Shown here: in pieces, positions 9,430 through 61,343 of the stretch
Position numbering within the stretch: position 1 is the first letter of the stretch
How the letters are laid out: every line of letters starts with the position of its first letter
The notes under the pieces: generated by a model
The model's input: the letters and a program-made list of their open reading frames with translations, nothing else
Databases searched by the model: none
Told to the model about the DNA's origin: nothing
Source: Psammoneis japonica
Taxonomy: Eukaryota
Reading direction: 5' to 3'
Length of the DNA stretch: 64,000 nucleotides
Assembly: GCA_008632985.1 (NCBI GenBank)
Contig: QPGO01000061.1
Span: 310,001-374,000, forward strand
Program-made: the position numbers and the translations under genes

Positions 9430-11550
9430 CAGTGGTTGTTGTTGACGACACTGAGACGACACACGCCATGTGTTCTGATTCAAGAGCCACCAGCAGTCTT
9501 TAGCAGTAATCTTGCTGCTGGCTGCTGCCTTTCAAGTGTTCTTCTTGCCAACAGCTGGAAAGCGTTCTTTGCAAGCAGGCCACCAAACCACGACACCAAT
9601 TGTCAACTCCACATGTCACACTCCATCCTGCAGGATTCCACTGTGGAGCATGCACAATCTCTGCCACAAGAACAAGACACCATCTTCATGGTTGCATGCA
9701 GCGCAGCAGGAGACCCCATCTTGTTCCACACAGCTGTGCAGCAGTTGGCGGCACACCACCCTTGTGGGGATGGGCTCCCGTGCTTGCCCCACTCTGGTGA
9801 TCCCCATCACAACTCTTCCAAAATCTCAATGTCAACACACTGACCTGGAATGGTTGGAAAAACCTTGACTTGGTTGAGAGCATCGAGTTGCTGGCTCCGC
9901 CTGCCAGAGCCGACTCTGTGGCAAAAACGAAGTTCCCCGTGCAATCACACCATTTCCACCTTTGCTTGCAAGCAGAGTCCAAGGCAAAGACTGCCAGCCA
10001 GCATCCAATCCATTGATTGTTCCCAAACAGGTTCCTCAAACATTTGCATCTCACCCCACTGCCCAAAGAAATCGTTTCACATGGCTTGCCTCCTTGGCGC
10101 CAAAGTTCCCATCAGCAAGCAAATGCCAAAGACACCAACAAGAAGCAAGACACAGCTTTCTCCCGCTGGAAACAGGATCTTGGTGAGATTGGACTTGGAG
10201 ATGACCCATCCATGGATGACCTCACTGTCTCCCAATTGCGCCGAACCCTTGGAGCCTTTGCAGCAGCAGCTGCCAGGGAAGGCAGAGACACTCCTCCAAA
10301 CGACTCAACATGCTGGTGGCAGGGGCCATCAGCACTGCCACAGATGATGTGGCATTGGCATTCAGGATTTGCAACAGGAAAAATCCACAACTTGACAAAG
10401 ATTGGCAAGCATCTTGCCTTCTGTTGTGGCACCAATGCTGAGGATGCAAGAACCAAGACGGTCAACAGAAACGACAAAAAGTGATCACAGCCACACTCCT
10501 CTGAGTCCTTGCCAGAAACTGTGTGACCTGCAAAGACACAGCCACAACATCAGCAATGCAGCAATCCTGCAAATGCTCCAAGACTGCTGGCAGTTGATGA
10601 GCCAAGCTGCTGACACTCAAGAGTCTCAGCTTCTTTTTCAAGATGGCAGAGAACTCTCACTTTCAGACCCAGACTTGGCCTCAGCAGACATGACATCCAT
10701 TGTGATCACTTTGACTGTGTCATGTGCTGTCTGCACCAATTGCAAGCTGTGGAGCCTGCAATCATCCACCATCCTGTCTGAGATGAGAGTGGCAGGAACA
10801 GCAATCAGAAAGTGGCATTTTGAATTTGGGGTGTGTGAAGCACACAAAATTGGAGCCCATTCCATTTGATCAGGAGCAGCAGTTGAAATGTGTCTCAACA
10901 ACACACCTGTGCATTCCGTCATGTTGGTTGGCATGTGGTCATTAGATGCCTTCCTTTTGCACATCCACAAACAAGTGCAACATTTCAGTGTCAGCATTTC
11001 ATCCCGCATGATCAAACACCAACACTTCTTCACAATCCCAGACTCCAATGCAGAAGATCCAAGAGCAAGAAATCACCATGAAGTCCAAGCCACTCACAAC
11101 AACAATGGCCCATGTCAAGTGCAACTCATGTCTGCAAAACAAGGCATGGAGGCTTTACACTGCACCCTGCCATTCCTTTGAATGAGAGCAGCTCTCCTTT
11201 GTTCCTCAGATTGGCAATCTTCTTGGCTGCCTCAGCTTTTTTTGTCAACAGCCAGGCAACTTTTTTCTTGTGCCAGGTTGCTGAAAGATGCTCCAGCTGA
11301 GTCTGGCAAAATGTTGATTTGTTGGCATTGAAGTTGTGTCTGTTTCTTGAGATTGTTGTCATCATCTTTTGATTTATGACTGAACAAAAGAGAGTGGCAA
11401 GTGGAAAAACCCTGTCCTTGTTGGTGTGCCAGACCCCACTGTGATGTGGCACCCCTTTTTGATCAGCACGTTTGACCCTCAACCAATGATGAGTGCACCC
11501 AAGCTGAACAGCAACTTGTTACCCAAGCCCATCACCACCTCACACGCGAC
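9430..11550 (+). mobile_element. Heavily mutated relic of a tyrosine-recombinase (DIRS/Ngaro-like) retroelement
   Basis: IGAHSI*SGAAVEMCLNNTPVHSVMLVGMWSLDAFLLHIHKQV (10850-10980) matches the YR C-terminal H-S-x-R...GRWxSDAFxxYIR pattern; the block is almost free of TpA and CpG. Boundaries approximate. Confidence 0.7.
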
Positions 11551-13600: not shown

Positions 13601-13932
13601 GATGCGGAGTTTTTACAGCTCTGAGTGACACAAACGTAGTCTTCCTTTCTCGAATTGCTATTTGCTCTTCTTTTTTGGAACGATTGATTTCATGGGATTC
13701 CAAAGATATTTTCCGGGTACCTATTTGATTTGGAATACATTCATCAACGAGGATGTTGAATGTTAAAAATCTTTCAACGCTGTCAACCTCAACGCAAGCC
13801 AGAAGCTGCATACAGCATGCGTTTTAGACTACGTGATGTTATCCGCTGTCGAAAGTCGAAAGATATGATGCCCGGCCGAGCGAAGAGGGAGCCAGGGGAG
13901 TCTATCGCAAATTCGCAAAGTTGGAAGTAGCC

Positions 13933-15306
13933 ATGCATTCTCACCGTTTCTCGGTCGTCCTCATCTGCTGTCTGCTGGTAGAGGCCCTAACGATGAGTAC
14001 CTCCGGCTCTGCTTTTAGTGGCAAACAAAGTGGGGGAGGGAAGAACCTCGTGGTGCTGAGCGATGGTACAGGCATGGAGCTCAAGGGAATGGATAAAAAC
14101 TCCAACGTTCTACGCCTTCTCCGTGTACTATCACGCAACGATGATGAGCAACGTGTTTACTACGATCCTGGTATTGGGACTGTCAAGAGTATCAATCCTT
14201 GGAGTATACTTCGAGCCAAGTTCAGCTCCGTTTTTGGTCTTGCTACCGGACAGGGATTGGATGAGGCTGTCCTTTCCGCTTATACATTCCTCATGACGAA
14301 CTATAAGGAAGGAGATCGCATCTACCTCTTTGGCTTCAGCCGTGGGGCATACACGATGCGCGTCCTTGCTGGATTCATTCATGTCGTTGGACTTCTTCAC
14401 CAAGACCAAGAGAACATTCTCCCATATGCTCTCGTTGCCTACAAGGAAGCAGGAAATGAATACGGCGGAATACCTAAAGACTATCGTTCCTCAATACCAA
14501 AAGAAAAGTTAAAGGCTGAAGCGGAGGCCAAGCGATTGGGAAAGCTTTCCGGAGCGCGACAAGTCGATATTCACTTTGTTGGCGTATGGGACACTGTCAA
14601 CTCGGTTGTTGTGCCTCGGCCCGATCGGTTTTTTATTCCATCGATTCAGAAGCTCCCATACACGAGAGGCAATCCCTCTGTGACGAATTTCCGTCATGCT
14701 TGTGCCATTGATGAGAGACGTCGAATGTTCCGTGTCAATAAATGGTTGTTTCCAAATGGTGAAAAGGTGTCGACCGAGGACGGCCGCGTGCTTAAAACTT
14801 CGACCAAACAGGTATGGTTTCCGGGTTGTCATGGCGATGTTGGCGGCGGATGGGCAGAGGAGAGGAGCGGATTAGCCAAACATGCCATGAAATGGATGGT
14901 TGACGAGGCGACTCAGGAAGGAATAAAGATTGACAATGATTTGTACAAGAAAATCTGTCTTGGTGAGGGAGAATGCGGACCTACAGTCATTGCCGGCGAT
15001 GTAGCTTGTTCACCTCCCAATTCACTTGGCCCGATCAACCACTCTCTCACCTTGGCTTGGAAACCTCTTGAGATCTTTCCAAAAGGAACCATGTGGAAAG
15101 AATGGAACCTCCGGTGGTCATTCCTTGGGTTTTACATTCCATGGGCCGAACCGCGCCCAATCCCTGCTCATCATGAGCTTCATTTTTCCGTCCGCGAGCG
15201 CATGGAAGGAGATCCCACGTACCGTCCGCCCAACGTGATGGCGTACTTGAAAGAGGTCGAGGAGAGTGACTCCCGGGCTCCAACAGAAGTGACACCTCTG
15301 GCCTAA
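13933..15306 (+). CDS. DUF2235 / Tle1-like alpha/beta hydrolase with putative signal peptide
   Basis: LVVLSDGT, YYDPGIGT, LFGFSRGAY, VGVWDTV, RHACAIDERR and VWFPGCHGDVGGG motifs; intronless; ATG at 13933. Confidence 0.9.
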   Translation: MHSHRFSVVLICCLLVEALTMSTSGSAFSGKQSGGGKNLVVLSDGTGMELKGMDKNSNVLRLLRVLSRNDDEQRVYYDPGIGTVKSINPWSILRAKFSSVFGLATGQGLDEAVLSAYTFLMTNYKEGDRIYLFGFSRGAYTMRVLAGFIHVVGLLHQDQENILPYALVAYKEAGNEYGGIPKDYRSSIPKEKLKAEAEAKRLGKLSGARQVDIHFVGVWDTVNSVVVPRPDRFFIPSIQKLPYTRGNPSVTNFRHACAIDERRRMFRVNKWLFPNGEKVSTEDGRVLKTSTKQVWFPGCHGDVGGGWAEERSGLAKHAMKWMVDEATQEGIKIDNDLYKKICLGEGECGPTVIAGDVACSPPNSLGPINHSLTLAWKPLEIFPKGTMWKEWNLRWSFLGFYIPWAEPRPIPAHHELHFSVRERMEGDPTYRPPNVMAYLKEVEESDSRAPTEVTPLA

Positions 15307-15399: not shown

Positions 15400-18300
15400 G
15401 GTCGGAGATGTTGTCCTGCATGAGTGCTGATGATGACGATGTTGTCATGCGGTTTGTCTTGAGGCGGACTCCATTCAATGCAAGTCGTGTCGAATGCCTT
15501 TTTGTCGATTATTTTGGACTTCACCCAAGTTTTCTCTTGTGCTGGCTGGAAGCTGCACTTGCTCAAACAAAGAACAACGACCTTTCTGTTGCACTTGTCG
15601 GCCATTTTTCGGTTTAACGCAGTGTTTTGGCTTTTGTGTTTGGGCGGAGGATGTGGTGTGTTTTCTGTTTGTGAGTGCAACTCTCAAGGTCACAAAACTT
15701 TTAATGTGTCACAGCACATGATGGCGTTAAGAACAACAAGATGGTCAATGAAGCTGCCAAATGCCATGCTGCTCAGTTCTGTGCCACAATGCCAGACACT
15801 GCCCCCCTCATGCAGGACGTTTCTTCTCCAAACAGTTGCAGGTCACTGGCACTTAGAGTGTCCTCGACAAATGAGAGAGTTCAGTCAGTTGGCTCTTCTC
15901 TTTCTTGTCTTGAGCAATGAAAATTTGCACCAAGGCAAATGCAGCATTGCTGCTCACAATGGCAAGTTGGAGAAGCAGATTCTGCCAAAGGATTCTGCTG
16001 CCCTTGCTGACTCAAGTGGTGGGCAGCTCACCTTTCTTGCCAAACACCTTCTCCTTGACCGGACATGCGCTGCCTTGTGCCACAACTTCTGCAGGATGAT
16101 TTTCTGCTGCCAATCTCATTGAAAAGTTGCCAGGGTGTTCTCAGTCTTCTTGCTGCCAGCCTGGCTTGGCTGCCAGCTGCTCACTGTTCTCATTGTGAAC
16201 CCTGCTGGTTTGTGGTGCAAAATGCTTTCTTTTTTTTTTCACAGAAGCTTGGTTCAAGTGCCAGTGGTGGCCCAGCACTGGCCTGCTGCACAGGAGGGCT
16301 GGTGCTAGATGCAACATTGAGATGGAGGCCCCAGCACAGCCAACCAACATGGGAGCTTGCATTTGCCAGCTGGCTGCACTGCTTGTCAAATTAACAACAC
16401 ATCCACAATCTGTGGTTGCCTTGTTGATGCAGCTGTGCCACCAGGGTGGCCTGGCAACTCTTCTCTGGTGGACCCCAGCAAACTCCACAGAGAGAGAGAG
16501 AGAGAGTGGCAATCATTGAGGAGCTGATGCAGAACACTCCTGAGTGCATGAGAGCATGGGTGAACTACATTGGCATGGCAAGGAATTTGCACAGAAAAAA
16601 GTGCAAGGGGTGCAGCAACAGTTGGAGCATGAGCTTGGGCTCAATTGGCCTCAGAGAATGGACAATGACATTTGACATGTGGGGTGAAGTTCTGATTGTT
16701 TCATTTTTTCCCTGTCAAGTGACGGCTTTTGGGATGATGCTGAGTGACACAAACACCATTTGGTGGCATGGCAAGCGGCAATCTTTGAGTCACTCATTTG
16801 TTTGGTTGAAAAACTGGGTGCAGTCCAGCCACAATGATGCACCAACAGCTGCACAAAAGAGCTGCAAACTCTCTTCAATTCAGAAATCTACAAGAGCCAC
16901 TGGAAGGTGCTCCTCTGAGCTTGCGCTGGCAGAATGACAATGCTGAATGAGCACAAAACTTTGAGAAAGCTGGAGAGTTGAGAGAGATGCATTTTTTACA
17001 AGGACTTGCAATGTGTGCTCCTTGCACTCCTCATCAAATTTGTTGTGGCATCAGCATGACAGAAACCATGCCAAAGTCACAAAGATTAAAGCTGCAGCCC
17101 TCGTTGCTGGTCACTTTTCTTGGAGAGAACATGCCCCCAAATCCAGGCCCAAGAGCACACAGCAACTGGTGGCCCAGCTTTCAACATGCACACACACACA
17201 CACACACAGTGCCTGGGTGCCTGCTCTCTTGCTTGGTGGTCATGTGCCTTCTGGTCTCATGTCTGCAACAAGACTTCCTCTCAAGCACAAATCAGTCTGG
17301 AGCAATGTCAGCCACCAGCATGACAGAAAAGTTGGAGCAGCAGTGCCAGCCCCACAGGTGGCAAGTGCTGGTTGGCCTGGATGACTGTCACTTGTGAAGT
17401 CATGCTCTGATGCAGTCCTGTGGCATGTGATGTTTTGAGGGTGAGACATTCCAGCCAATTTTGCCTCTGTTGATTTTTGTTTTGGTTGACAAGCCACTTC
17501 CAACAATGTGCTCACACACCCACCACATTGCAGCCAGCATCCCCACCCTCACTTTGCTTGCCACTCCAAATGACACAACACTCTTGTTGTTTGTCCTCAC
17601 CTTGCATCTGGTCCTGGCTTCTTGTGATCCAGCCAAGAGAAAGCTGCAGCATCCTCACACACAGCTTTTTGCTGTTTGGGCCATGTTCAAAAAATGCACT
17701 TTGCAGAAAGAGCTCAACAAACACAGCTTGGTGCCCCTGCTGAAAGAAGGGTGAGCTGACCAGCACAGAAGAGGGAGTGGAGTGACAGTGCTGCAGCTGG
17801 GCCCTGTGCAAGGCTGTGTGCAGTCAGAAAGCCCAGAGCAGTGTGGCCTGCCAATGCCTTCAACCAAAAAATGACTTTGAGCCTTGACACCAGCTGTCTT
17901 CAATGAGTTGTTTTTACCCTTGTTTTCACTTGAGCAAACACTGTCTGCTTCAAACCAATCTTGAGCAGTTGAAAGGAAATCACACCTGCAACAACAAAAG
18001 GAGCAAGCTTGGAGTGTTCCAGGAAAGCACCAAGCAGGCCACCTGAGGTGCCGCTGTCCACAGTGCATCCAGGACAACAGCAGCACTCAGAAATCTAAGA
18101 ATTCACAACACAGCCACACCCAAAGTGGTGCAAATGAGAGCAGGAAAGAACTTGAGATTTTCCAGGTGAGAAGCACAAAAACTGATTTTTCCCCCCCTCC
18201 AACATGAACACCAGCTGATGGCTGCCTTCTCAGGAGGAGCAGCTGAAGGTGTGTTCCATTGTGCCACAGCAACCTTGAAGAAAAGAGCAGTTGTGTTCTG

Positions 18301-18689
18301 AGACAAAGGTGGGGGGTGGTCACCAGGTGCAGGTGGCACAGCAGCACTGACCATTGTTTTGACAATGATGTGCACAGAAGGCATTTGCCACATGGGGCAG
18401 CAAGTGCTTTGCCACCAACCAAGGACAACATTGTCAGAAATGATGATGCTTGCCCCCCAGCTTGTGCAAGCAGCAACAGGCAAGCTGTCCACAAATGAAG
18501 CCATCTGCTGTTTTGCACTTGCCCGTCTGTTTGTGATCAGCGCTGTTGCAAATGTTGCAATGAAACAAAGCCAGCAGCAGCAACAACAACCATGATTGTT
18601 CATTGCAGTCTCTGCTTTTTCTCAGTGCCATTGTTGGCAGTGCCCCATCTGTGAAAATGGGTGATGATTGCTGCATCATGGGAACCAAC
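15400..18689. other. Unidentified degenerate TpA/CpG-depleted block, left part (target of the Copia insertion)
   Basis: Roughly a dozen TpA in about 3.2 kb by hand count and few CpG; no recognisable domain; continues after the TSD at 25802. Confidence 0.6.
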
Positions 18690-18965
18690 TGACAGGATTT
18701 GAACAGGATTTGGATGCGCGCGAAGTGTCGCGCGCTGTTTAGTTTACCGCGCACAGTTTTGTGTGCTTTAGTTCCGCGCGTTCACGCGCGATGTAGTTTG
18801 CTTTCGAGCCACAAGGCTCACAAGAATAATAACAGTAGCCCGATTATACCGACTTACACGTCTTTCGGCTCCTGTAACGGTCTCTGAGCGGAGACTCATC
18901 TGCTATTTAGACAGCAGTAAGGAGTTATTGTTTGAATTCTTGCCATTTGCCTTCAATTTCTGTCA
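18690..18965 (+). repeat. 5' LTR
   Basis: TGACAGG...CTGTCA, 276 bp, 267/276 identical to the 3' LTR. Confidence 0.97.
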
Positions 18966-19912
18966 GATTAACAGTCTTGCTCATTGTCAACCCATTGAGC
19001 AACCGCCATCGTCGTCGGTGATTTACCAACGACGCTATTTCAATTCTACGTGGACCTCCGTATATATTCTACATACATCGGCAAGTCTACGCGCATTCAA
19101 TACCAGGGCATCGGCAGGAAGTTAACGTCACCGTCAAGTCTCCTTACCGCTGGATATCTGGATTGATTATACTACCTTTGATCGCTGAAGACTTATATTC
19201 AACGGTCATGTCCAAGTCTATCCTTGATCAACATCCCTTGGGTGCACCTGTTCCTCGGTCAACGGTCAAGAACCCTGCACATTCAAGGATCTTAGTCGCT
19301 GAAGACACATGCGCGCATGTGTGTGCATGTCTTCACGGCCAAGAACCTTTATCCACTCTTCGGACTGCGGTTTTGCTGCCACTCTACAAGCACACCGAGT
19401 CCATTGCACCTGATCCCACCCCGGACTGCTGGTGCTCCACAGTTCTGCTAGGTCCACGAGGACGACTGTGAGAGCAAGCAGCCGTGATTGCAGCCTGCGT
19501 TGGGGCGAGGGTGCTTTCCCGCGTTTGTTCGTTCGTCCACAGCGCCCAACGCCTGCGTCAACTGGCCAGCCTGATCGGGAAATCCAACCGACATAAAATG
19601 AGAACGGTTCGGGGGTCTTGTCCACCTCTGGTCAGCTTGCCTGCAGGGGTTTACAACCCGCCACTCTGCTTGCAAGCAACCCAAAGCGCCACCAGCTGCG
19701 GGTTCGGACGTGCCGGCACAACTCTACGGACCGGACAGGAAGTTTGGCACTTGACAACGAACGGGATGACAAAGCCCGGCAACTTCTGATTTTAAGATGG
19801 TTCAAGATTTCAAGTCAAGTCTGTTTCAAGTCAAGTCCATTCTCACCCAAGTTTCGAGTCTGCCTTCACTTCCCAACCAGAATTGACTGTCCTGACACCA
19901 CTTTTGTCTGCC

Positions 19913-22900
19913 ATGGTTCTCACTCGTCAGCAACAAACCGATGGTTTCGAGCACGTTGTTGGAACCGTGCTTGCCCAAGGTGCTGGGAGTCCTCTTCGTT
20001 TGGCTTTGGCCCAAGACGGCACGGACTCGCATCAGGAACTGTTCACGTTCATGCCGTCCCAAATCGACTCGCTTGAGTGCGACAACGGCACTGATGCAAT
20101 CCCTTTGCCCCGTGGTTGCAAGAACATGTCAGCAGCACCAGTTGGTCTGCACATTGTCAAAGCACACAAAGGTCTTGACGTTGCCAACGACTCCTCTTTG
20201 TTCACGCATGACGAGTTCCTTGCCCCGCCTCAGCCCCGACTGCATGTCTTCTGTGTCCATCGGCAGCTCACCCCTTGCACATCCACATGTCACCAACCAG
20301 ACCAAGGCACGCGACCCGGTGCGAGACTTCAAGCGAGGCATCAAGCGTGATCCCACCGCTTTCACGGCTCTCAAATCCGACAAGCAGCGGCACACTTGGC
20401 ACACCTCACTTGTGGCACAAGCCCATGCCCAAGACGTCGAGTGCATTCTAGACTCGTCGTACAAACCGACCAGCCCCGAAGACAAACTGCTCTTTGCTGA
20501 ACAGCAAAAGCACATGTTCGCCGTCTTCGAACGCATCCTTCTCACCGACAAGGGCAAGGCTCTCATTCGCGAAAATGTGGGGTCTTCTGACGCACAGACC
20601 GTCTGCCGCTCCTTGTCTGAGTGCGCGCTTGCCTCCACCCGCGCATCTGTCGAGTCCTCCACCCTGCTCACGCACCTCACCACCGCACGTCTTGGTGATG
20701 GCACTTGGAAAGGTCCGACCCACGGGTTCATCCTTCATTGGCAAGATCAGTTGCGCAAGTGCGAGGCACTCATCCCGGCCAGTGACCACTTCTCTGAAGG
20801 ACAGAAGCGCGTCATGCTCGAGAATGCCGTGCACCCTGTCGAGGAACTCCGTGCTGTCAAGAACCAAGCTGATCAGCATCGTACGCAGAGTGGCAAGAGC
20901 CTCACATGCGATCAATGCTGTGGCTTGCTCCTCTCCGCGGCAGCTCAGTGCGACAGCACGTTTCAACCCAAGACGACACCTCGAGCTCCCCGACGCGCCA
21001 CATGCGCACACGACGTCTGCTCCGAGGAACCGTCCGACGATGTGTTCTACGACATTGACAGCGACGTTGACGTCCTTCAAGCCAATGCTGCCTGCACCCG
21101 CGGTCCCAGCCTCACCGGTGTCCAATGGAGACGTCTCCCTCCCGACCACCAACGGCTCTGGGATTCGTTGCCCGATTCCTCCAAGGCGATCATCCTTGAG
21201 CATTCTCGTCCGCCTCCCCGCAACCCGCGAGCCAGCAACTGCCATGAGTCTGTTACGGCCAACCTTCACGACCAACACCTTGGGAGTGACGGTGATGTCA
21301 ACTTGTCCAACACGACTCCTGCTGACTGTGGTGACCCCGCTGCACATGTGGACGCCACTTCGGATAATCCCATCCTGGCGCACCTCACCAAGCGCAAGCC
21401 ACTGCCACCCGGTGATCTGCAACGTCTGTTGTCTCCTAACCAAGCCCCCAATGCCAGTCGACCGGGGCCATCCGCCGCTTCCTCTACCCCGCCAGCTTCT
21501 GCAGATGACATGGAACTTAACGGCCGCACTTGCCGCCGCGTCAACAACCACAATGTCATTTGCTCTGCCTCTGCTCATCGCTCCACACGCACTGGCGCTC
21601 TAGTCGATCGTGGGGCCAACGGCGGCATTGCTGGCGACGACGTTCGCGTCATTGCACGCACCTCTCGCCAAGTCGATGTTCAGGGCATTGACGATCATCA
21701 GTTGGTGGACATCCCCATTGTCACCGCTGGTGCCGTCATTGAGACCCAGCGTGGTCCCGTCATCGCCATCCTCCATCAGCACGCACACACGGGAAAGGGC
21801 AAGACCATCCATTCCTGCGGCCAGCTCGAATGGTGCAAACAGGATGTCAACGATCGCTCTGTCAAGGTGCCCAACGGCTTGCAACGCACTGCCACTCCTG
21901 ATGGCTATGTCATCCCCATTGACATCAAGGCTGGCCTGCCTCATGTTGCCATGCGACCTTACACTGACGCCGAATGGGACACCCTGCCCCATGTCATCCT
22001 CACCGGTGATGACACATGGGACCCTTCCGTCCTCGATCACTCTGTCACTGACGACGATCAGTGGTGCGACGCGATCTCTGACCTGCAGGACGATCCCACT
22101 GCCAACCTGTTTGACGAATGCGGCAACTGCCGTCACCGTGTCGTTGTCAACGAGACCATCTTGTCCGCTTCCTTGTCTGCCGATCACGCGTCCGCCCTCG
22201 ATGATCACCTCATTCCGAACGACGACGTGTTCTACGAGTGTCATCTGCATGCGATTGACCCCAAGGGCGATGACGTTCCACCTCCGGAGCGCACTGCACA
22301 GCCCAAGGACCCCCCTTCGAGTCTCTTCGGCCTTGCTTTGGCTTCCCACCTGCCGATGCGGTCCGTCGTACTTTTGACTGCACCACGCAGTGCGCCCGCA
22401 TGCCCGCCGGTGCACACCTTCGCAAGGCCTGCAAATCACCCAACCCCGCCCTCAATGTGCACCGCCGCAACGAGCCCATCGCCACTGACACCGTTCATGC
22501 CGACACCCCGGCCGTCGACTCTGGTTGCACCAGCGCCCAACTGTTTGTTGGCACCGAGTCTACCGTCACTGACGTCTACGGCACTAAGACGGACAAAGAG
22601 TTTGTCAACACACTCGAGGATCAGATCCGTGAACGTGGTGCCCCATCCAAACTCATTAGCGACCGTGCTCAAGTTGAGATCAGCAACAAAGTGCTCGGGA
22701 TCCTGCGCGCCCTCTTCATCTCCAGCTGGCAAAGTGAGCCTCACCAGCAACACCAAAACTTTGCCGAACGTCAACACCAGACCGTGAAGCGCATGGCGAA
22801 CACTGTCATGGACCGTTTTGGTTCGCCCCCCACACATGGCTGCTGGCGCTCATGCACGTGTGCTTCACACTCAACCACACAGCGTCCCCACGTCTCCACT

Positions 22901-25520
22901 GGCGCACGCCCCTCGAGACTCTCACTGGATCCACCCCGGACATCAGCCCATTGCTTCGCTTTCACTGGTGGGAACCAGTGCACTTCCACCTCGATGACTC
23001 CGATTGGCCGTCCGAATCCCGTGAGTTGCGTGGACGCTTCGTTGGCATTGCTGAGCACGTCGGCCACCAGATGACCTTCAAGATCTATCTGACGAGACTC
23101 AGAAGATCCTCTGCCGGTCCAACGTTCGCTCCGCCACCCCGATCCTGCCGTTCGAAACCTGCGTCTTGATCCTCCTGATGGGGAGCCACCTGAACCCATC
23201 ATCAAATCTCGCCATGACGACAACCCCGTCGATTCTCCTGATGGGGAGATCAGGACACCCAAGATGCCAGTTTTCGATCCGCAAGACATCATTGGACGTA
23301 CCTTCCTCATGCAGCCACAAGAGGATGGACAACGCCACAGAGCTCGCATCGTCAAGGCCGTTGAAGACCACGAATGGAAAGTGAACGGCAATCCTGAGCT
23401 CACTAAGTTCGTCTGCTCTGTCAACAATGACGAATACGAGGAAGTCCTTGCCCACAATGACATCATGAATCACATTGAGCGAGAAGACGAAGACACCACC
23501 ATTTGGAAATTTCGACGCATCGGTCACACGAAGGACCTCTGAAGCCTCACGACCCAACCTGGAAAGGCTCAAGCTACAACATCATGCTTGAATGGGAAAG
23601 TGGGGAGATCACGTCCGAGCCTCTTGCCATCATCGCCAAGGACGACCCCGTCACCTGTGCCATCTATGCACGAGAGAACGGACTCCTCGACACGGATGGC
23701 TGGAAGCGGTTCCGCACTATCGCGAGGCGCCAAAAGAAGCTATTTCGCATGGCCAACCAAGCCAAGCTTCGCTCCTTCCGCACTGCACCTCGCTACAAGT
23801 ACGGACACGAAGTTCCCCGGAACTACAAACACGCCATGTCACTAGACGAACGCAACGGCAACCGCAAGTGGGGAGACGCAACTAATCTCGAGTGGACCAA
23901 CTCACGAATACGAAGTCTTCCATGACTGCGGGCCCTTCAAGTCTTCCACTCCTCCTGCGGGACACAAGAAGATCCGAGTGCACCTGGTGTGCGACGTGAA
24001 ACACGACGGTCGCCACAAGGCACGACTCGTAGCCGACGGGCACCTCACGGACGTACCTGTCGACAGTGTCTACTCCGGAGCAGTCTCCCTCCGTGGCCTT
24101 CGGCTGATGATTTTCCTGGCCGAACTCAACGAGCTGGAGACATGGGCCACCGACATTGGCAATGCCTGCCTTGAAGCCACCACCAAGGAGAAGCTTTACA
24201 TTGTAGCTGGACCCGAATTTGGCAAACTCGAAGGACACATCCTTGTCATCCACAAGGCACTGCATGGACTGCGCAGCTCCGGTCTCCGCTGGCACGAGCG
24301 CTTCGCCGACTGCCTGCGAGCTGAAGGCTTCTTCCCCTGCCGCGCCGAACCCGACATTTGGATGCGCAGGAACGGCGACCACTGTGAATGCATTGCCGTT
24401 TATGTGGATGACCTCGCCATTGCCATGAAGGACCCTCAATCTTTCGTCGACACTCTCACGGAAAAGCACAAGTTCAAGCTCAAGGGCACGGGACCCATTG
24501 AGTTCCATCTGGGTTGCGACTTTTCTCGGGACCCCGACGGAACCTTGTGCCTGTCTCCGCGCAAGTACATCGAGCGCATGGTCGACAGCTGCGCCCGACT
24601 GTTTGGGGAGAAACCTGCCACCAACACCCTGTCACCTCTAGAGAAGGGTGACCACCCCGAACTGGACACTTCCGAACTGCTGGGATCCAATGGCATTCAC
24701 AAGTTCCAGTCTCTTGTTGGTTCACTCCAATGGGCAGTGTCCCTTGGTCGAATTGACATTGCCACGGCTGTCATGTCACTCTCTAGCTTCCGAGCTGCGC
24801 CCCGTCAAGGCCACTTGGATCGTGCCAAACGCGTCTGTGGGCACCTCTCCAAGATGCGACACGGTGCTCTCCGCGTTCGCACGGAAGAGCCCGACTGTTC
24901 GGATCTCCCTGCTCCGGCATGTGAATGGATGCATTCCGTGTGTGGTGAAGCAGAAGAGATGATCCCGAAGGACGCTCCACCGCCCCTTGGCAAGTTCGTC
25001 ACTGCCACCCACTACGTCGATGCAAACTTGTGCCATTGCATGCTCACCGGATGCTCTGTCATGGGAATGCTCCACTTCCTCAACAAATTCCCGGCTGATT
25101 GGTTCTCCAAGAAACAAGCCACCGTGGAGACTGCAACCTACGGATCTGAATTTGTTGCCGCAAGGAATTGTGTTGAGCAGATTGTCGACCTGCGCATCAC
25201 CCTGCGCTGCCTTGGCGTCCCGATCCGCAATGTTAGTTACATGTTCGGTGACAACAAGTCGGTTGCAGACAGTGCCACCATCCCGCACTCCAAGTTACAC
25301 AAGCGACACACCGCACTGTCGTTCCACCGTGTGCGTGAGGCAATTGCCTCTGGTTGCCTTGAGTTCCACTTCATCGAAGGCTCCCGCAACCCTGCTGACA
25401 TTCTCAGCAAGCATTGGGGTCACTCCCAAATCTGGGACCTTCTCCGCCCCCTCATGTTCTGGAACTTCATTCCATCCGAAGTCGAATCTGTTTCTGTGGC
25501 TCCTCAAGCAAACTGGGGAG
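19913..25520 (+). pseudogene. Copia gag-pol, frameshifted and Tyr-depleted
   Basis: gag FKRGIKRD; protease LVDRGANGG; integrase ATDTV..D, ISDRAQVE, SEPHQQHQN; RT KHDGRHKARLVA, YVDD; RNase H YVDANL, TYGSEF, FGDNKS, NPADILSK; several frameshifts. Confidence 0.95.
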
Positions 25521-25796
25521 TGACAGGATTTGAACAGGATTTGGATGCGCGCGAAGTGTCGCGCGCTGTTTAGTTTACCGCGCACAGTTTTGTGTGCTTT
25601 AGTTCCGCGCGTTCACGCGCGATGCAGTTTGCTTTCGAGCCACAAGGCTCACAAGAATAATGACAGTAGCCCGATTGTGCCGACTTGCACGTCTTTCGGC
25701 TCCTGCAACGGTCTCTGAGCGGAGACTCATCTGCCATTTAGACAGCAGCAAGGAGTCATTGTTTGAATTCTTGCCATTTGCCTTCAATTTCTGTCA
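25521..25796 (+). repeat. 3' LTR
   Basis: Copy of 18690-18965 with 9 substitutions, all at TpA sites. Confidence 0.97.
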
Positions 25797-25801
25797 CCAA
25801 C

Positions 25802-27480
25802 TTTTTGAGGGATGCAGGCTTTTGGGGTGTGCATCAGTGGAGAAGAAGGCTGCTCCATTTGTGGCCAGAACAAGCGCCATTGCAGCCCATGCTTTGGATG
25901 CTTTTTTGATTCTTTGAGCCCACAGAAGGTTTGGCAGTGCAGCTGCATGAGCCCCTGTTCCCTTTGGACCCACACAGGGTGAGATCTACCCAGACGCCAC
26001 TTGCATGCCCCAAAACTTTGACCCTGATGCTGAAAGAAACAATGACAGGAGAGCCAAGCTTGTGCCACTGAAAATCCCGCCAGCTGAGTTGACAATCCAC
26101 CCTGCATCTTTAAAATCCAGCAAGGGTGGCAACTTGACAGCAATGTGTGGCTGTGTGGACATGACCTTTGAAGTTGGCCCAGCACAAGATGGTGATTTGC
26201 GGCAGTTTTTCACTGATTTGAAGGGTGAGTTGTTGGCCAAAACATGCAAAAAGTCTTTGGACAGGGATGTCAAGGTTTCAAAGAAAGGCCAACACATGCA
26301 ATCTGAAGTTTTTGTGCAATGAATTTCAAAATGCAACAAGGAAGGAAGATGAGAAGACAGCTGTGACAGGCTGATCAAAGTCATTTGTGACAAGTGCTCT
26401 GCTTGAGTGCTTCAAAAACTTGAAGCACCAAAGCACAGCTGCCCCAGCCAAAGGAGAGGAGGCACAAACAAAAGTCCCACCCCCTCCAAAGGGAATCAAT
26501 GCCTGCAGCAATCACTGCCCCAGTGAATGAAGAAAGGTGCTGGCAGAGCCAACTTGAGCCTTCAAAGCAGTGCTGCTTCTGCATCAAGGAACCGACTCTT
26601 GCCTCAGACAAGCTTCTCAAGCTCAGGGCATGACTGCCCCCCCACTTTGAAGATGTGGTGCCTGCTGAGACTTCAGGAGCCATGACCAAAGACTTTTGCA
26701 CAACTGTGCACTTGAGCTGCTTGCCAATGAGTGCCATCATTGTGGGGTTCACTGCTGCAGCACCGACAGCTTTGCTCAAAGTTTCCAAGATGAAAACAAA
26801 CGCGGTGCTGCAAAAGAAACAAGGTTGGCTCTCATTTGCAAACACCCTGCAGCACCAAGACAAAAATGAAATGAACTTTGAGAATGACAAACTGATGAAC
26901 TTTGTTGAAACATTCTGTGCAGAGACCTCACAAAGCCAGCAGCTGGCTGTTGTTTGCCAACAGCAGCAAGCCCCCAAGAAGCATCAGAATTTGGGGAAAA
27001 GGCTTGCTCATGTTTTTTTTGACTCAGCACCCAGCTGCCACTGTCAACAATCACTGCCCAAGCTTCAAAATATGATGGCTGGAGCACCTCATGTCAGTGG
27101 ACAAGCTGAGTGGGCAAAGACCAAAATCCCGTCACAGACAGGGTGTTTGCCACCAGAGCCCGCCCCCCCCAAGAAGAGAAGCCTTCAAGTGTGGGAGCTG
27201 GCTGTGAAGTTCTTGTCAAAAAGGCAACAAGAAGCAAGCCCATTGACAAAAAGACCATTGAGAATCAAAGTGTTGCTGGCCTGTGTCCAGAGTTGCATGG
27301 CTGTTTTGCAGCAAACTTTGAACAAAAACTCTCGCACTGCTCTCAAAGTTTGCCAGTGCACACAGCACAGGAGTCCATGAGGAGCTCTCAGGATTTGTTC
27401 TTGTGATTTTCTCATGAAGAATGGAACAGGAAATCAGAAAATTGGTGAAAGGACCATTGAGATGCCACCCAGCAAAAAGT
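25802..27480. other. Unidentified degenerate TpA/CpG-depleted block, right part
   Basis: Same composition as 15400-18689 and contiguous with it across the TSD. Confidence 0.6.
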
Positions 27481-27795
27481 GACGCCGCCGGGATGCATCA
27501 TGGTGCCGCAGGTTTCATCGCTTGGATGGAAGGAGGTGTCTTTCTTGTGTTCGCGTCCGTTTGAATCAGGATTTTGGGGGCGGGTTCCCAACCCGGATAA
27601 CAAACGTTCCAAAAAAGATATTCCAAAGATCCATCAATTGCGACACAACATGTCGCTAATTCTTCGATGACGATGGCGGCGAAACACGAAATAGTAAGGC
27701 CAAGTCACAAAGCTCTCACAAGCCTAGAAATGACGAATGGTCCATGGAAGCACTGGTAAAGCCATCACAAAAGGCACTGCAAAAAAAAAAGCATC

Positions 27796-28389
27796 ATGAA
27801 GGTAATTTCTGGAGGTCAAACCGGCGCCGACCAGGCCGCGTTATTGGCGGCTCGACAAGTGGGCCTCGAGACGGGTGGCACCGCACCCGAAGGATTCCAA
27901 ACCGAACGAGGCCCCATGCTGGAACTCCGTGATGTCTATGGTCTCTCTGCAGAAGGAACGTGCCAGAGTCGAACCATAAAGAATGTTAATGACTCGGATG
28001 GCACCGTGGTTCTGCTTGTGCATGATGGATCGGACGGTAGTTCCAAAACCATTGGATGGGCAAGCAAGCGGTGCTGGGAGGACTCCTTTGAATCGAAATT
28101 TCAAGGCGGGCATCGACCTGTGCTGGTGTTGCATGCGGAGAATTTGGAGGAGGATCAGCTGTCTGAATCTGCCCTGAAAATTGTGGAGTTTGTGCGACGA
28201 TTCAACATTGGTACGCTCAATGTTGCCGGCCATCGACAGTCGGGTGCGTTTATTCCGCCATTCTACACGGGAAAAGCACCCTACGACTACCAACAACGCT
28301 GTTTTGATCTGTTGCTTCTTGCCTTCAAGTCACTTGTTAGAAACGACGAGGACGAGAGAAGCGAGAGGAAGAATGATGGAGCGGATTGA
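27796..28389 (+). CDS. Circularly permuted YpsA-type SLOG protein (the 'putative molybdenum carrier' family)
   Basis: ISGGQTGADQAAL..GG.AP.G...E.G, RT.KNV.DSDGT and LNVAGHR motifs. Confidence 0.85.
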   Translation: MKVISGGQTGADQAALLAARQVGLETGGTAPEGFQTERGPMLELRDVYGLSAEGTCQSRTIKNVNDSDGTVVLLVHDGSDGSSKTIGWASKRCWEDSFESKFQGGHRPVLVLHAENLEEDQLSESALKIVEFVRRFNIGTLNVAGHRQSGAFIPPFYTGKAPYDYQQRCFDLLLLAFKSLVRNDEDERSERKNDGAD

Positions 28390-29197: not shown

Positions 29198-32100
29198 TTA
29201 GGGACAGTCCGGTACCGAGCCATCACTAGAAGGGCTTCTGGGAGGGTCGACACAAACAGGAGCGGACGTTGGCCCATAGTTGGTAGAACTGCAATCGAAA
29301 TTGCCACCACCCGCGGCACCGTTGCAACAATAGTCGTCACCAGTTGTTTGGCAAGTGTAAATACCACCAACCGTGCTGCTTGCAACATCGGGACAAAATG
29401 GCAAATTCTGAACATTATCTCCAAAGGCGCAAAACGTTGATGGGTGCGGCGGAGTGTTTTGGTCCGCTTTAAGACAGCCTGTTCCGCATGTGGTGCTGCA
29501 CGTTGAAGTGCCGAGCGCTCCAAGTGCGACCTTGACGCATCCGCTGGTTGCAGGGCAGCATTTCGCTCTATTGTTGTTGTCGGTACTGACAATCTCGTAT
29601 GCATCATCACACAAAGTCTCTTTCGCTGTGGTGCATAGTCCTGAACCCTGACAGACAGAATTGACACAATCCTCGTTGGAAGCGCAATCAGTCTCGTCGT
29701 TGCACGAGGGGCATGGGTTATTACACCTTCCATTACTTGTATCGCACGCCGCCGAGCAGTCGCAGTCAAAGTTACAACTTTCGCCTTGGTTATTTCTTTT
29801 GGTCAAGCAAAAGTTTGAATCGCACTCACACTCGCAGGTATTCGGGTTGCAAGTTGCTCCCGCATTGTCACCAGGGCGTCCACCGCAGTCATTGTCTTGA
29901 CTGCAAGATTCGAGCAAGCCGTCGGCGTCAAACTTCGTCACGCATTGTCCAGTAGTAGGTGAATCAGAGGGAACTCCCGACGGAACATCACTTGGCAAGC
30001 TCGATGGAACGTCACTCGGTGACTGCGACGGAGTTTGGCTGGGCATGTCAGAAGGAGCATTCGACGGGATGCTGCTCGGCGCGCTTGATGGAACGTCACT
30101 TGGCATGAGTACTGTGGGACTTTGACTTGGTGAATCGGACGGAATTCCCGACGGTACGTTGCTCGGCGAGCTCGAAGGCATGTCACTCGGTGATTGCGAA
30201 GGAGTCTCGCTGGGCTGATCAGATGGAGCACTCGACGGGACGTCACTTGGTGTCGTTGACGGAACGCTCGAGGGAACGTCACTCGGCGTGCTGGAAGGCT
30301 CAACGCTAGGCATTGCCGATGGCACGTCGCTCGGAGCACCACTGGGCAACATACTAGGTTGACTGGAAGGAGTGTCACTGGGTACAGAAGATGGTTCCTG
30401 GCTAGGTGTATCAGACGGAACCCCCGACGGTACGTTGCTTGGCGAGGTAGAAGGCACACTGCTCGGTGATTCCGAAGGAGTCTCGCTGGGCTGATCAGAC
30501 GGAGCACTCGACGGGACGTTGCTTGGTGTCATCGATGGAACGCTTGACGGAATGTCACTTGGCATGCTTGAAGGCTCCATGCTAGGCATTGCTGATGGCA
30601 TGTCGCTCGGAGCACCACTGGGCAACATGCTAGGTTGACTGGAAGGCATGTCACTGGGTACAGAAGATGGTTCCTGGCTAGGTGTATCAGACGGAACCCC
30701 CGACGGTACGTTGCTTGGCGAGGTAGAAGGCATGCCACTCGGTGATTGCGAAGGAGTCTCGCTGGGCTGATCAGATGGAGCACTCGACGGGACGACACTT
30801 GGTGTCGTTGACGGAACGCTCGAGGGAATGTCACTCGGCGTGCTGGAAGGCTCAACGCTAGGCATTGCCGATGGCACGTCGCTCGGAGCACCACTGGGCA
30901 ACATACTAGGTTGACTGGAAGGAGTGTCACTGGGTACAGAAGATGGTTCCTGGCTAGGTGTATCAGACGGAACCCCCGACGGTACGTTGCTTGGCGAGGT
31001 AGAAGGCATGCCACTCGGTGATTGCGAAGGAGTCTCGCTGGGCTGATCAGATGGAGCACTCGACGGGACGACACTTGGTGTCGTTGACGGAACGCTCGAG
31101 GGAATGTCACTCGGCGTGCTGGAAGGCTCAACGCTAGGCATTGCCGATGGCATGTCGCTCGGAGCACCACTGGGCGACATGCTGGGTTGTTTGGAAGGCA
31201 TGTCACTGGGTACAGAAGATGGTTCCTGGCTAGGTGTATCAGACGGAACCCCCGACGGTACGTTGCTTGGCGAGGTAGAAGGCATGCCACTCGGTGATTG
31301 CGAAGGAGTCTCGCTGGGCTGATCAGATGGAGCACTCGACGGGACGGCACTTGGTGTCGTTGACGGAACGCTCGAGGGAATGTCACTCGGCGTGCTGGAA
31401 GGCTCAACGCTAGGCATTGCCGATGGCATGTCGCTCGGAGCACCACTGGGCGACACACTAGGTGACTGGAAGGATGTCACTGGGTACAGAAGATGGTTCC
31501 TGGCTAGGTGTATCAGACGGAACCCCCGATGGTACGTTGCTTGGCGAGGTAGAAGGCGCACTGCTCGGTGATTCCGAAGGAGTCTCGCTGGGCTGATCAG
31601 ACGGAGCACTCGACGGGACGTTGCTTGGTGTCGTCGATGGAACGCTCGAGGGAACGTCACTCGGCATGCTTGAAGGCTCCGTGCTAGGCATTGCTGATGG
31701 CATGTTACTCGGAGCGCTGCTGGGCAACACGCTAGGTTGACTGGAAGGAGTGTCACTGGGTACAGAAGATGGTGCCTGGCTAGGTGACTCAGACGGAACT
31801 CCCGACGGTTCATTGCTTGGAGAGTTCGAAGGCGCTTCGCTCGGGGATTGCGATGGATTCTCGCTGGGCTGATATGAAGGAGCACTCGATGGGACGTTAC
31901 TTGGTGTCATCGATGGGGCGCTCGACGGAACGTCACTCGGCGTGCTGGAAGGCTCAGCAGTGGGCGTTGCTGATGGCATGTCACTCGGAGCACTGCTGGG
32001 CGACATGCTGGGTTGTTTGGAAGGCATGTCACTGGGTATAGAAGATGGTTCTTGGCTGGGTGTGTCAGACGGAACTCCCGTCGGTACATTGCTTGGCGAG

Positions 32101-55869: not shown

Positions 55870-58230
55870 CGACAATGGTTGGGCCATGGCAGCCGCCGGC
55901 TCAGGGCTGTTATATATTTCTATTCAAGTGTGACATCGCAATGGACACGTGCTCTATACTGGGCTGCGTTTGAGCTTGACGGCATCTACAGTGGAACTTG
56001 AAGTGTTGTTGCAGTGGGCAGCATTGGATCAATTAAAAAGTGGGTAAAGTTGCAATGTCCCAAAACAACAAAAGTACAACAGGATGGATTAAATGAAGAG
56101 CCCATTGCTGGGACAGATCCAAGTGTCTCTTTTGGGAAGATCCATGTCATTGTCAGAGGATGGAAGCATTGTCAGTGTTGGCTCATTGGGGAGTGATGCC
56201 AATGGATTGTCTGACTCCAGTGAGCAAATGACAAACTAAATGTGAACAGTGTTGTGGAAAAGAGGTGCTTTTAAAGCCAAGCAAAGAAGATGTGTCTGCA
56301 GACAGGAAGTGTTGTGCGCACCGCATTGCTCCCATCATGTCACCGGGGGGGGGGTGACCAACTGATGTGGTCATGAGTGGAAAGGGTTGCCAAAAATGAT
56401 TTGAAGAAGAAGCAAGAATGGGCTGAGAGTCATTTGTCAATTGTTGCTCACAGCTGGGCCATGTTCATGAGAAGAAAGAGTCTGCTTCTGCTGGGAAAAG
56501 TGACAACAAAACAGTTGAGCAGGGGGGAAGCAGGAGGTGCTTTGGTGCACTGCCCAACTCCTCTGCAGACAACATGTGTGCAAAAGTGCTCCACAACATT
56601 TGGACACCCTCAGTGCAACACCAGTGACTGGCTCTGGGTCCAACAAACTACAGTTGTCCATCAAGGCTGCACAGCCCAAAAAATCAGCACCTTTGTTCAT
56701 TTTCAGCACCTTTAAAAAAGATCCAGCACCATTTCAAAAACAGAGCACCTTCAAATGCACTTGTTTTTCACACATGTTTTGTGAGAAATTGACTGAAATT
56801 AGCCACATTGTTGCCAAATTGTGACTCATCTGTGGAAAAACAGTCCTGTTTGTTGAATGCAATGGATGAGCTCCAGTGTCCAAGTCTCACATTTTGATGC
56901 TGGAGTGCCTCCGTTGCATTTGACGAACAGCATTTGTGCGATTGTTGTGTTGTTGTTCCATTGGGTGCTGTGTGCAGGCAGTGGCTTGGAATTTGTCAGA
57001 ATGCAGAAAGTTTTCAAGGTGCTGAAAATTTAAAAAAAAAGCAATGACATGATTTTCTTTTGAAGCAATGATTTTTAAAGGTGCCAAGTGCAAATTTGTC
57101 ATTTGCAGCCACTCCTGCAACTCCAGCTCCCTCTGGCAAGGTAAAACTTCAAGTGGTTCTTTTGGCAATTTTGTGTCCTTGTCTTGTGATGGCAGTGTCA
57201 TGGCTGTCAGAGCAAACAATCAATGGTCCTCTTCTTCCAAGCCCTGCTGTGCTGTGTTGTTGTGCAATGATGCAATCCAATTGCCCAACAATGGACGCAG
57301 TTTGGCCAAGAATTTGTTGGACAAGCCAGCGGCAGTGCTTTTGGTGAGTCTGTTTCATCAAATTGCAGTGGCACAATTCTTGCAGTTGGAGCTGATGAAA
57401 ATGAAAGTGGCAGAGTGAATGCCAGCCATGTCCAGGTGTTTGAACACAACTCAGCATTGAATTGTTGTTTGGTCCAACTTGGTGGTGACATTGTTTGACA
57501 AGATGCTGGTGTGATGAATTTGGTTTTTCTGCACTGCTCTTGGACACGGGAGACATTCTCTTGCTGTGGGAGCTCATTTGGATGACATGGAAAATGACAC
57601 CCAGATGACCATGGCTTCTCATCCCGAAGCTAACTTGGACAAAACACTCACCAGCCAAGCCAACAACTGCACTGGGTTTCCCATTTCCTTGAATTCACAG
57701 GGAACCACCATCAGCATTGAAAGGGATGCAGGTCAAGCATTGGCACACAGTGCAACACTGCATTGTCAAAATGGCAAATTGTGGATGATTGGCTTTTCTC
57801 TTGATGACAGCACCTTGATTGTGGCTGCAGGTGCATGCAGAGACAACAAGAGAGTTCTTGCTGTTTGTGCAACTGCTCAACATTGAAATGGAGTGAATGT
57901 GGCCAAACATTTTGACACAACAGTCTGACAATGGTTTTGGGTGGTCAGTGTCATTGAGTGGCAATGGAAACGTCTTGGTGGTTGGCAGTTGTTGGCATGA
58001 CATCAATGGACTGGTCCATGTGGGTCAAGTTTGAATCTTTCAGCATGACAGGGCAATGCAGATGAAGGAAGCAAGTTGAAGATCCTCTAAATGGTGAGAC
58101 TGAAGACAATGGTTCAGGTGTTCTGTGTCCTTGTAGAACGACGGAAGCATTGTTGGAGTTGGTTCACGGGGGGCTGACGTCAACGGTGACAAGTCTGGAT
58201 CTGTGTGAGAATTGTATTTTGCATTTCATC
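55870..58230 (+). pseudogene. Degenerate, TpA/CpG-depleted paralog(s) of the FG-GAP propeller region
   Basis: 55915-55955 nearly matches 55430-55470; relics FGNFVSLSCDGSVMAV, FGWSVSLSGNGNVLVVG and DGSIVGVG...NGDKSGSV. Confidence 0.75.
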
Positions 58231-58544
58231 CATTTTTTTGCATCAATCGTGTGACTGCAATGCTGAATGTTGAATTTCAAATGACCCATGGTTTCGCAAG
58301 TTGCGGCAACAAAATGAGACCGTTGAAGTTGTTTTTACCATCTCGAGAGGCATTGAGGTGATTTACAATTGCTGCATTAGTCCATCATATGCGGAGAGAC
58401 GCAGCTAGTTGTCCAGAAATACTTTGGCACCTGCCACCAGCTAAAAATGCTACGTGCAGCTAACAAGATTCCTGAGCTTCTAGCGCTGTAGGTCGCACAA
58501 TCTGTTTGTAGATGCGGCGTTCGTTGTAAGAAACCAACGCTTTT

Positions 58545-60654: not shown

Positions 60655-61343
60655 TAGGCAGGGCCCCAATCACTCAATTCCGCCGACGCAACAACACCAA
60701 CACATGCAAACCCATTAGGCCCTAGCAGTGCACGCCCATGATGGACAAAGTGCTTCCATTCGTTCTAGCCCTTACGCGTCTGCTTTTTTTTAATTATTAT
60801 GGTTGGTGCATGTTTATTGTGTCGCTCGGCATAATAACAACATATGAAAAATCAGTGCAGTGCAATATCCGAGCGATTCGTAGATACCCAGGAATATGGA
60901 ATTTGATTGGCTGAAACACGTCACAGTTACAGATGGGGCAATACTATCTTATCGCGGTCGACCGTTGAGCTCACAATATTTCAGTTGCAGACGCTCACAA
61001 TTACTCGATCACCAGCACGATGCAATACGAGTGCTTGCAACAGCAAAACGTATGATTCTTAAAATTTTCATCAAATCCAGATCTTCAAGGAATCAAAATT
61101 GGAATCGGATTGGCGTTAAATGGCAATGTCGAATTTCAAGACCAATCACCGACGACGACGAAACAAGAATGGTTTGCGGTGCACAAAACCACGTCTGGTT
61201 TATCATTTCTTCATGTTGTCGTGCACGGAATGAACTCGGAAACAAGCACAAGCATCAGTGTAAAGAGTGTTGAACAAGAGAATAACAACCAAAAGCGATA
61301 CGCACCGGTCTCGTTCAACCGCATCCCACAATAAGACAAGATC

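Follow-up and report, generated by a model that had tools for sequence, protein, structure and literature searches.

The closest described counterpart of the process reported here is a hypermutation of TpA dinucleotides in the rhizarian Bigelowiella natans. In mutation-accumulation lines of this species, two viral inserts acquired 231 mutations, 230 of them A:T>G:C changes at TpA that arose at ~1000x background; the process hits integrated nucleocytoplasmic large DNA virus (NCLDV) and virophage DNA, is active in only some lines, and is ascribed by its authors to ADAT2 as a candidate (10.64898/2026.01.13.699255). Within the literature covered, which excluded subscription papers, the TpA signature is in print only in that preprint, with nothing for diatoms. 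The main text of the preprint makes no mention of diatoms, CpG, long terminal repeats (LTRs), or retrotransposons, and the sections covered give no flanking-base motif; the supplement may hold contexts (10.64898/2026.01.13.699255). In other diatoms, CG methylation lies on transposon islands and depends on DNMT5 (PMC9998398), and amphioxus ADAT2/3 naturally converts A to I in DNA, with a preference for GAA and hairpin loops, and also deaminates C (PMC10354150). Here, we examine a stretch of 64,000 nt (positions 310,001 to 374,000 of contig QPGO01000061.1, below called the window) from the 91.4-Mb assembly of Psammoneis japonica (GCA_008632985.1), in which a Ty1/copia retrotransposon (Copia) sits inside an older block without TpA and CpG. 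The named homologs of the Copia protein and of one host gene are from diatoms. We find that T-A steps in transposon copies turn into T-G or C-A after insertion, ~20x faster than C-G steps decay and in the same places. The rate order against CpG decay, the co-targeting with its promoter protection, and the flanking motif are new here.

A young Copia element nested in an older block

The first-pass annotation of this DNA had proposed a nested age series, with a host block lacking both dinucleotides and a younger Copia within it that has lost most TpA and kept CpG. The host block was borne out: its left half (15640-18689) holds 11 TA (observed/expected ratio [o/e], 0.06) and 13 CG (o/e 0.07), and its right half (25797-27470) holds 3 TA (o/e 0.03) and 11 CG (o/e 0.11), every deficit having a P of <1e-21 against the window background (o/e 0.56 for TA and 0.97 for CG). 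Between the halves lies the Ty1/copia element (18690-25796), with 276-bp LTRs that are 96.7% identical and a 5-bp target duplication, CCAAC, on each side. A paralog (L033) runs across the insertion point, aligning to both halves of the block, which in this sequence are joined at the target duplication. Together, the flanking duplication and the joined halves prove that a young Copia is nested in an older block. Its interior (19500-25500) is TpA-poor and CpG-rich as described, with 50 TA (o/e 0.18, P 1e-21) and 442 CG (o/e 0.92, P 0.14); the description does not extend to the first ~600 bp, which retain TpA (o/e 0.76-1.22 in 18801-19200). The LTRs of this copy differ at nine sites, all of them TA in the 5' LTR against TG (4) or CA (5) in the 3' LTR, and at no CpG site.

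Contigs from run X1, possibly the sample behind the assembly, match the host block over 4.0, 2.5, and 3.2 kb with 8, 6, and 4 differences, respectively, ruling out an assembly or consensus-calling artifact; runs X2 and X3, with little coverage of the block, were left out. Among the 12 differences listed between X1 and the assembly in the host block (15440-26896), 2 are TA/CA and 4 involve CG, one of the latter within an adjacent swap. If these are alleles, both processes are still active there; they may be assembly errors, as may some 1-bp gaps in the gag-pol region of Copia.

TpA is lost faster than CpG

From 396 candidates, 40 copies were scored and 38 relatives were taken, excluding the window's own match and one truncated copy. 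With the window copy included, two LTRs were found in 38 copies, and the target duplication was intact in 36; L047, L037, and L056 were dropped. The rate, LTR-pair, and spectrum counts below refer to these 36 copies of one Copia family, a sample that leans to young copies resembling that of the window.

At 265 TA sites, the copies carry TA 3459 times, TG 3372 times, CA 2404 times, and CG 14 times, amounting to a loss of 63%, against 5% at 531 CG sites in the same copies. The ratio of the two loss rates per copy has a median of 21 and a range of 8 to 38. LTR pairs, compared position by position, differ in 304 of 640 comparisons at TA sites, in 44 of 748 at CG sites, and in 53 of 7117 in other columns, 27 of these in a single copy (L044). 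Among the TA differences, TA is retained only in the 5' LTR in 214 cases and only in the 3' LTR in 33, and the remaining 57 set TG against CA, each of which must therefore have taken two independent hits. Since the LTRs of one copy differ, and do so on both strands, the change took place after insertion. The proposal that TpA loss is much faster than CpG loss is supported, and its order, TpA before CpG, is right.

The same order was seen in 464 kb of contiguous DNA, of which 43% is TA-void and 28% is CG-void; 72 kb is void of TA only and 1.8 kb of CG only. CG o/e was <0.3 in 136 of 384 analysis windows, none of which had a TA o/e of >0.35. Across families, TA o/e was 0.06-0.20 at every divergence and CG o/e fell from ~0.8 to 0.3-0.5, a trend that is not monotonic and comes from few, non-independent pairs. 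The rate difference alone accounts for the nested age series, since TpA is the first to disappear from young elements and both dinucleotides have disappeared from old blocks.

Direction and sequence context of the change

Both TG and CA were found at 221 of the 265 TA sites, which makes TA the hub; a CG ancestor at these sites was rejected. At 19 columns where Tyr is conserved in 120 outside homologs (Tyr in 2063 of 2176), the Copia copies carry Cys 242 times, Tyr 209 times, and His 111 times, and the in-frame stops are 5 TGA and no TAA or TAG. The direction is TA to TG or CA, with Tyr giving way to Cys or His and stop codons not created.

The change is confined to TpA. A>G elsewhere occurs at 2-8 per 1000 site-copies and is not more frequent at AA, and C>T at CpG occurs at 17-24 per 1000; the TpA hazard per strand is 0.25-1.4, roughly 100-fold above other A>G changes as a relative rate. 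It is highest when a pyrimidine (Y) follows the A, at 0.6-1.4 for TAY and 0.25-0.65 for TAR (R, purine). Old blocks confirm this preference independently, because RTAC is gone there and TTAA and CTAA are partly retained: residual TA relative to normal DNA is 0 for ATAC and GTAC, 0.007 for ATAT, 0.11 for CTAG, 0.22 for CTAA/TTAG, and 0.47 for TTAA. Hazards on the plus and minus strands are 0.84 and 0.73 for TAY and 0.39 and 0.33 for TAR, and no strand-coordinated or processive runs were found in the 36 copies (0.530 vs 0.520 within 25 bp).

Several finer patterns were considered and rejected. A transcriptional strand bias is small at most, with 423 TG and 343 CA at GTAC and even or reversed proportions at CTAG, TTAA, and ATAT. 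A TadA-like TACG motif is not favored, as TACG (0.82) is not above TACC (0.84) or TACT (0.93); a TAY preference of evolved TadA was not confirmed. The Tyr of the reverse transcriptase motif YVDD is kept in 34 of 36 copies, for which context is a likelier cause than selection: TTTA/TAAA sites keep 67%, compared with 28-30% elsewhere, and conserved Tyr overall is lost at the average rate.

Two sequences are possible cases in other organisms. One of the 120 proteins (P0072), its Arg intact, carries Cys at 5 and His at 6 of 30 reference Tyr positions, and 1 of 80 metagenome loci (L100) has a TA o/e of 0.35 overall and one 400-bp window with TA at 0.00 and CG at 0.06. Collapsed assemblies would hide more.

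TpA and CpG losses share their targets

Across copies, TA loss and CG loss co-vary (partial r 0.42, P 0.01, with other private changes allowed for), and both are excluded from the same promoter zone. In the 34 copies analyzed for this zone (L039 and L044, with replaced segments, were dropped), leaders fall into two classes regardless of loss in the body: protected (21 copies, TA loss mostly 4-18%) and open (13 copies, 43-89%). The window Copia belongs to the protected class. CpG loss in the first 600 bp follows the same division, with 5/826 in protected and 17/514 in open copies (odds ratio 5.6, P 2e-4), and is similar in the bodies of both classes (3.3% and 4.0%). Inheritance of open promoters within a subfamily was rejected: 22 of 28 leader sites in open copies show both products, pointing to independent mutation, and none of 60 common single-nucleotide polymorphisms tracks class. 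Where targeting is concerned, the covariation and the common protected zone contradict the earlier description of TpA loss as a separate process.

TA loss in the 5' LTR rises with the CpG o/e of the upstream flank (rho 0.58, P 3e-4, n = 34), and so does that in the leader (rho 0.44). Loss in the leader is not linked to the downstream flank (rho 0.16), nor loss in the body to the upstream flank. Copies sitting in CpG-void blocks have an unmutated promoter, as if fully decayed blocks no longer seed silencing. The upstream kilobase is TA-void (o/e <0.15) in 29 of 38 copies, vs 43% of sampled DNA, which reflects either insertion into old mutated blocks or survival in them.

TpA loss occurs in sharp blocks and spares genes; one decayed host-gene copy, an FG-GAP gene at 56000-58300, is also affected and has lost both dinucleotides. 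In four or more linked host-gene copies that share ~85% identity across 2.6-3.0 kb, TA o/e stays at 0.61-0.70. Since such duplicates keep TpA, duplication alone is no trigger, and the process is not repeat-induced point mutation (RIP). Tandem FG-GAP repeat genes (50982-53554, 60955-63524, and more on the contig), which carry 24-bp arrays and are ~86% identical, have normal TA and CG.

Extent of TpA loss at block edges

TpA-poor, CpG-retaining edges had been taken as a sign that TpA loss spreads further than CpG loss. The left margin agrees with that description, with 0 TA and 7 CG in 15400-15510 (P 0.03) and 2 TA in 15400-15640, an interval picked post hoc (P 0.009). The right margin (27480-27670) is not beyond chance: it has 3 TA vs 6.8 expected (P 0.095), a value equally low in 13% of background windows. 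TpA loss exceeds CpG loss at this block by ~110-250 bp on its left side and by ~115 bp on its right. An initial segmentation of 43 edges put the median offset at +84 bp (null, +12), positive in 29/43, and a second count gave 28/43 positive offsets. The pooled likelihood placed the offset at +50 bp (bootstrap, -40 to +90; simulated null, -10 to +20), 1.6 log units over zero. A TpA-only margin of up to ~100 bp is possible but not established, and the same holds for the wider spreading. A narrow TA-poor margin is expected without extra spreading, since one process is 20x faster in a partly occupied zone.

Candidate enzymes in the genome

The genome encodes an ADAT2 (L157), a TadA with an N-terminal extension (L154), dCMP-, guanine-, and RibD-type deaminases, and two proteins of the ADAR/ADAT1 fold. 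Its ADAT2 has HAE, PCxxC, and an Asn corresponding to TadA D108N. The second ADAR-fold gene does not single out this genome, since homologs occur in centric and pennate diatoms. Searches for Tet/JBP and MT-A70 gave no match in the genome and were silent in every control genome too, and thus do not demonstrate absence. DNMT domains gave 27 matches, one of which adjoins a chromodomain (L169), and the IMS domain of Y-family polymerases gave six, at about five genes.

Five C5-methyltransferase genes (L166, L167, L168, L172, and L175) lie in TA-void DNA (TA o/e 0.03-0.11, CG o/e 0.24-0.74), some with stops; these multi-copy genes are probably mobile or viral and affected by the same process. One open frame (L156:313-1785) combines a guanine-deaminase-like domain with a 2OG-Fe(II) dioxygenase.

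Weighing the explanations

We have moderate confidence in the best reading of these data, namely, that an enzyme deaminates adenine at TAY where chromatin is methylated and silenced. After insertion, TpA steps of repeats are changed singly, on either strand, to TpG or CpA. A host enzyme recruited to the same chromatin zones as CpG decay would deaminate the TpA adenine, most readily in TAY and least in TAA, in DNA that is silenced and CpG-methylated, and the resulting hypoxanthine would be read as G at replication. CpG decay would here mark 5-methylcytosine (5mC) chromatin, as is known in other diatoms. The process, presumably active in the sense of being enzymatic, may serve as genome defense. 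Several points weigh against this reading. Searches of the genome found no dedicated TpA enzyme, and its deaminases look like a housekeeping set. Amphioxus ADAT2, the only natural ADAT2 with demonstrated deamination of A in DNA, has its preference at GAA, and the key Asn also occurs in orthologs without DNA activity (PMC10354150). A>G in TAY and T>C in RTA are indistinguishable by sequence. Loss per TA site spans 0-100%, beyond what the flanking base explains, and doubly hit LTR sites agree in 151 cases vs 134 expected under independence, both of which imply that some changes were inherited or converted. TA loss is also slightly raised near lost CpGs in the same copy (mean Z, 0.13 at ≤10 bp and 0.09 at ≤25 bp), which a repair-coupled process would give too, and weak spatial co-loss is seen under 400 bp.

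These last two signals fit a by-product of 5mC, in which T:G mismatch repair with an error-prone Y-family polymerase restores CpG and miswrites nearby TpA; the shared targeting and the IMS-domain matches fit it as well. The A>G motif of polymerase eta, WA, includes AA, with TA favored, yet ApA change is not raised here (2.9-7.6 per 1000, similar to CA and GA). Nor are strand-coordinated tracts seen, and TA loss is uncorrelated with the local density of CpG at scales of 5-100 bp (rho -0.05 to 0.07). Moreover, 9 of 80 related Copia loci from metagenomes have a CG o/e of <0.4 yet a TA o/e of 0.47-0.93, so TpA loss is not an automatic outcome of CpG decay. We consider this repair route unlikely; with the strict TpA confinement, the TAY preference, and the action on both strands, the claim that TpA loss is no by-product of CpG decay holds as far as chemistry goes. 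It is rather unlikely that TpA bears its own symmetric base mark in silenced DNA (methylated A or oxidized T) that is prone to miscoding or deamination in the way of 5mC at CpG. In favor of such a mark, TpA shares the palindromic form of CpG, its strands are hit equally and singly, the domains are those of CpG decay, and the data are as compatible with T>C in RTA as with A>G in TAY. Against it, a base that decays passively at 20x the speed of 5mC deamination would have to be unusually labile, and Tet/JBP and MT-A70 gave no match, though controls were equally silent. A stronger version of a separate process, with its own targeting and spreading beyond methylated domains, would explain why TpA loss extends further at both edges of this block, why most offsets are positive, and why the pooled estimate falls outside the simulated null. 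The bootstrap range, the small gain over a zero offset, and a promoter protection common to both processes speak against it, and we hold it to be very unlikely. Virtually no credence is left for fungal-type RIP run backwards (CA/TG to TA), RNA editing, reverse-transcriptase error, or a sequencing artifact. Diatoms possess a RID-related DNMT4 (PMC9998398), and L169 has a chromodomain beside its DNMT domain, but RIP is excluded because Tyr became Cys or His and TGA accounts for the only stops, which fixes the polarity. LTRs that differ on both strands place the change after insertion, contrary to editing or reverse-transcriptase error, and the run contigs agree with the assembly.

Features of the window

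Coordinates of the nested block, the Copia element, and similar blocks are collected in Table 1.

Table 1. Features of the window (positions counted from its first nucleotide)
Feature	Position	Strand	Remarks
Older host block, left half	15400..18689		TpA and CpG nearly gone; paralogs weak (70-75%)
Left margin	15400..15640		TpA-poor, CpG kept: 2 TA, 11 CG
Target-site duplication, left copy	18685..18689	+	CCAAC
5' LTR, 276 bp	18690..18965	+	15 TA kept
Protected promoter zone (5' LTR and leader)	18690..19290	+	TA loss 24% vs 73% in body; private CpG loss 0
Ty1/copia gag-pol region, several frames	19896..25573	+	RVT_2 in 23846-25570
3' LTR	25521..25796	+	6 TA kept; 9 differences from 5' LTR
Target-site duplication, right copy	25797..25801	+	CCAAC
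Older host block, right half	25797..27480		Continuous with left half in paralog L033
Right margin	27480..27600		CpG resumes at 27483, first TA at 27598; alone not significant
Second block without TpA and CpG	9500..11500		Both dinucleotides lacking
Third block without TpA and CpG	56000..58300		Overlaps decayed copy of FG-GAP repeat host gene

At the curated cutoff, Pfam gave no match for 30 open reading frames from the three blocks. Own-genome searches with the host block returned only 70-75% identical fragments and one 43-bp match. The genes flanking the block (12318-13493, 13837-15306, and 27760-28389) have bacteria-typical domains, namely, DUF3500, a Tle1-like alpha/beta hydrolase, and cpYpsA SLOG. 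A tandem array of about eight 276-bp units (29900-32500) is perhaps partially hypermutated; one self-alignment of it (960 bp) has 15 TA-type, 37 CG-type, and 32 TG/CA-swap differences.

Significance

With these results, a TpA signature found in print only once reaches a second lineage of eukaryotes as well as transposons, and it is tied to domains of CpG decay. The mechanism becomes testable in diatoms, in which DNMT5 has been knocked out (PMC9998398). If true, a natural deaminase of DNA adenine with >100-fold specificity for TpA would matter for mutagenesis and base editing. In such genomes, LTR dating, transition/transversion ratios, and GC content are badly biased; dating is affected because all 9 differences in the 276 bp of the window LTRs stem from the TpA process. 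Repeats can be ordered by age with a two-speed TpA/CpG clock, and the past promoter state of each copy can be read from its TpA retention. Tentatively, diatoms and chlorarachniophytes might share an undescribed defense enzyme, an A:T-directed counterpart of RIP. Recruited to chromatin silenced by 5mC, it would deaminate TAY in double-stranded DNA; it would have rewritten about two-fifths of this genome and would permanently record for each copy whether its promoter was open or shut.

Comparison with known systems

Polymerase-eta mutagenesis at WA resembles the process here in its A>G changes with TA favored and differs from it in that AA is not raised here and strand-coordinated clusters are missing. 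APOBEC or ADAR editing of retroelement intermediates acts on one strand, leaves identical LTRs, and produces processive clusters, none of which applies here. For amphioxus ADAT2/3, the sections covered show no repeat targeting (PMC10354150).

RIP in ascomycetes likewise makes dinucleotide-specific transitions in repeats, after insertion and on both strands. It runs in the opposite direction (C:G>T:A, mostly CpA to TpA, so that RIP makes TpA), whereas no stops and no strand-coordinated runs are created here, and it is triggered by duplication, whereas linked host duplicates ~85% identical over 3 kb keep their TpA here. RIP is further marked by its dependence on RID/DNMT4 and its premeiotic timing. 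Deamination of 5mC in diatom transposon islands shares with the TpA process its domains, its protected promoter zone, and its TG/CA end products; it differs in acting on C:G, in being ~20x slower, and in occurring without TpA loss in related elements elsewhere.

The hypermutation of Bigelowiella affects viral targets in a rhizarian, whereas the targets here are LTR retrotransposons and a dead gene copy in a diatom, with 43% of 464 kb TA-void. ADAT2, the enzyme proposed for Bigelowiella, is also present in this genome with its Asn, but that residue is general to orthologs. In both systems, the change is from TpA to TpG or CpA only, on both strands, and it acts on the integrated copy of foreign or silent DNA; in the sections of the preprint covered, the TpA-depleted clusters of Bigelowiella are enriched for transposon domains, as they are here (10.64898/2026.01.13.699255).

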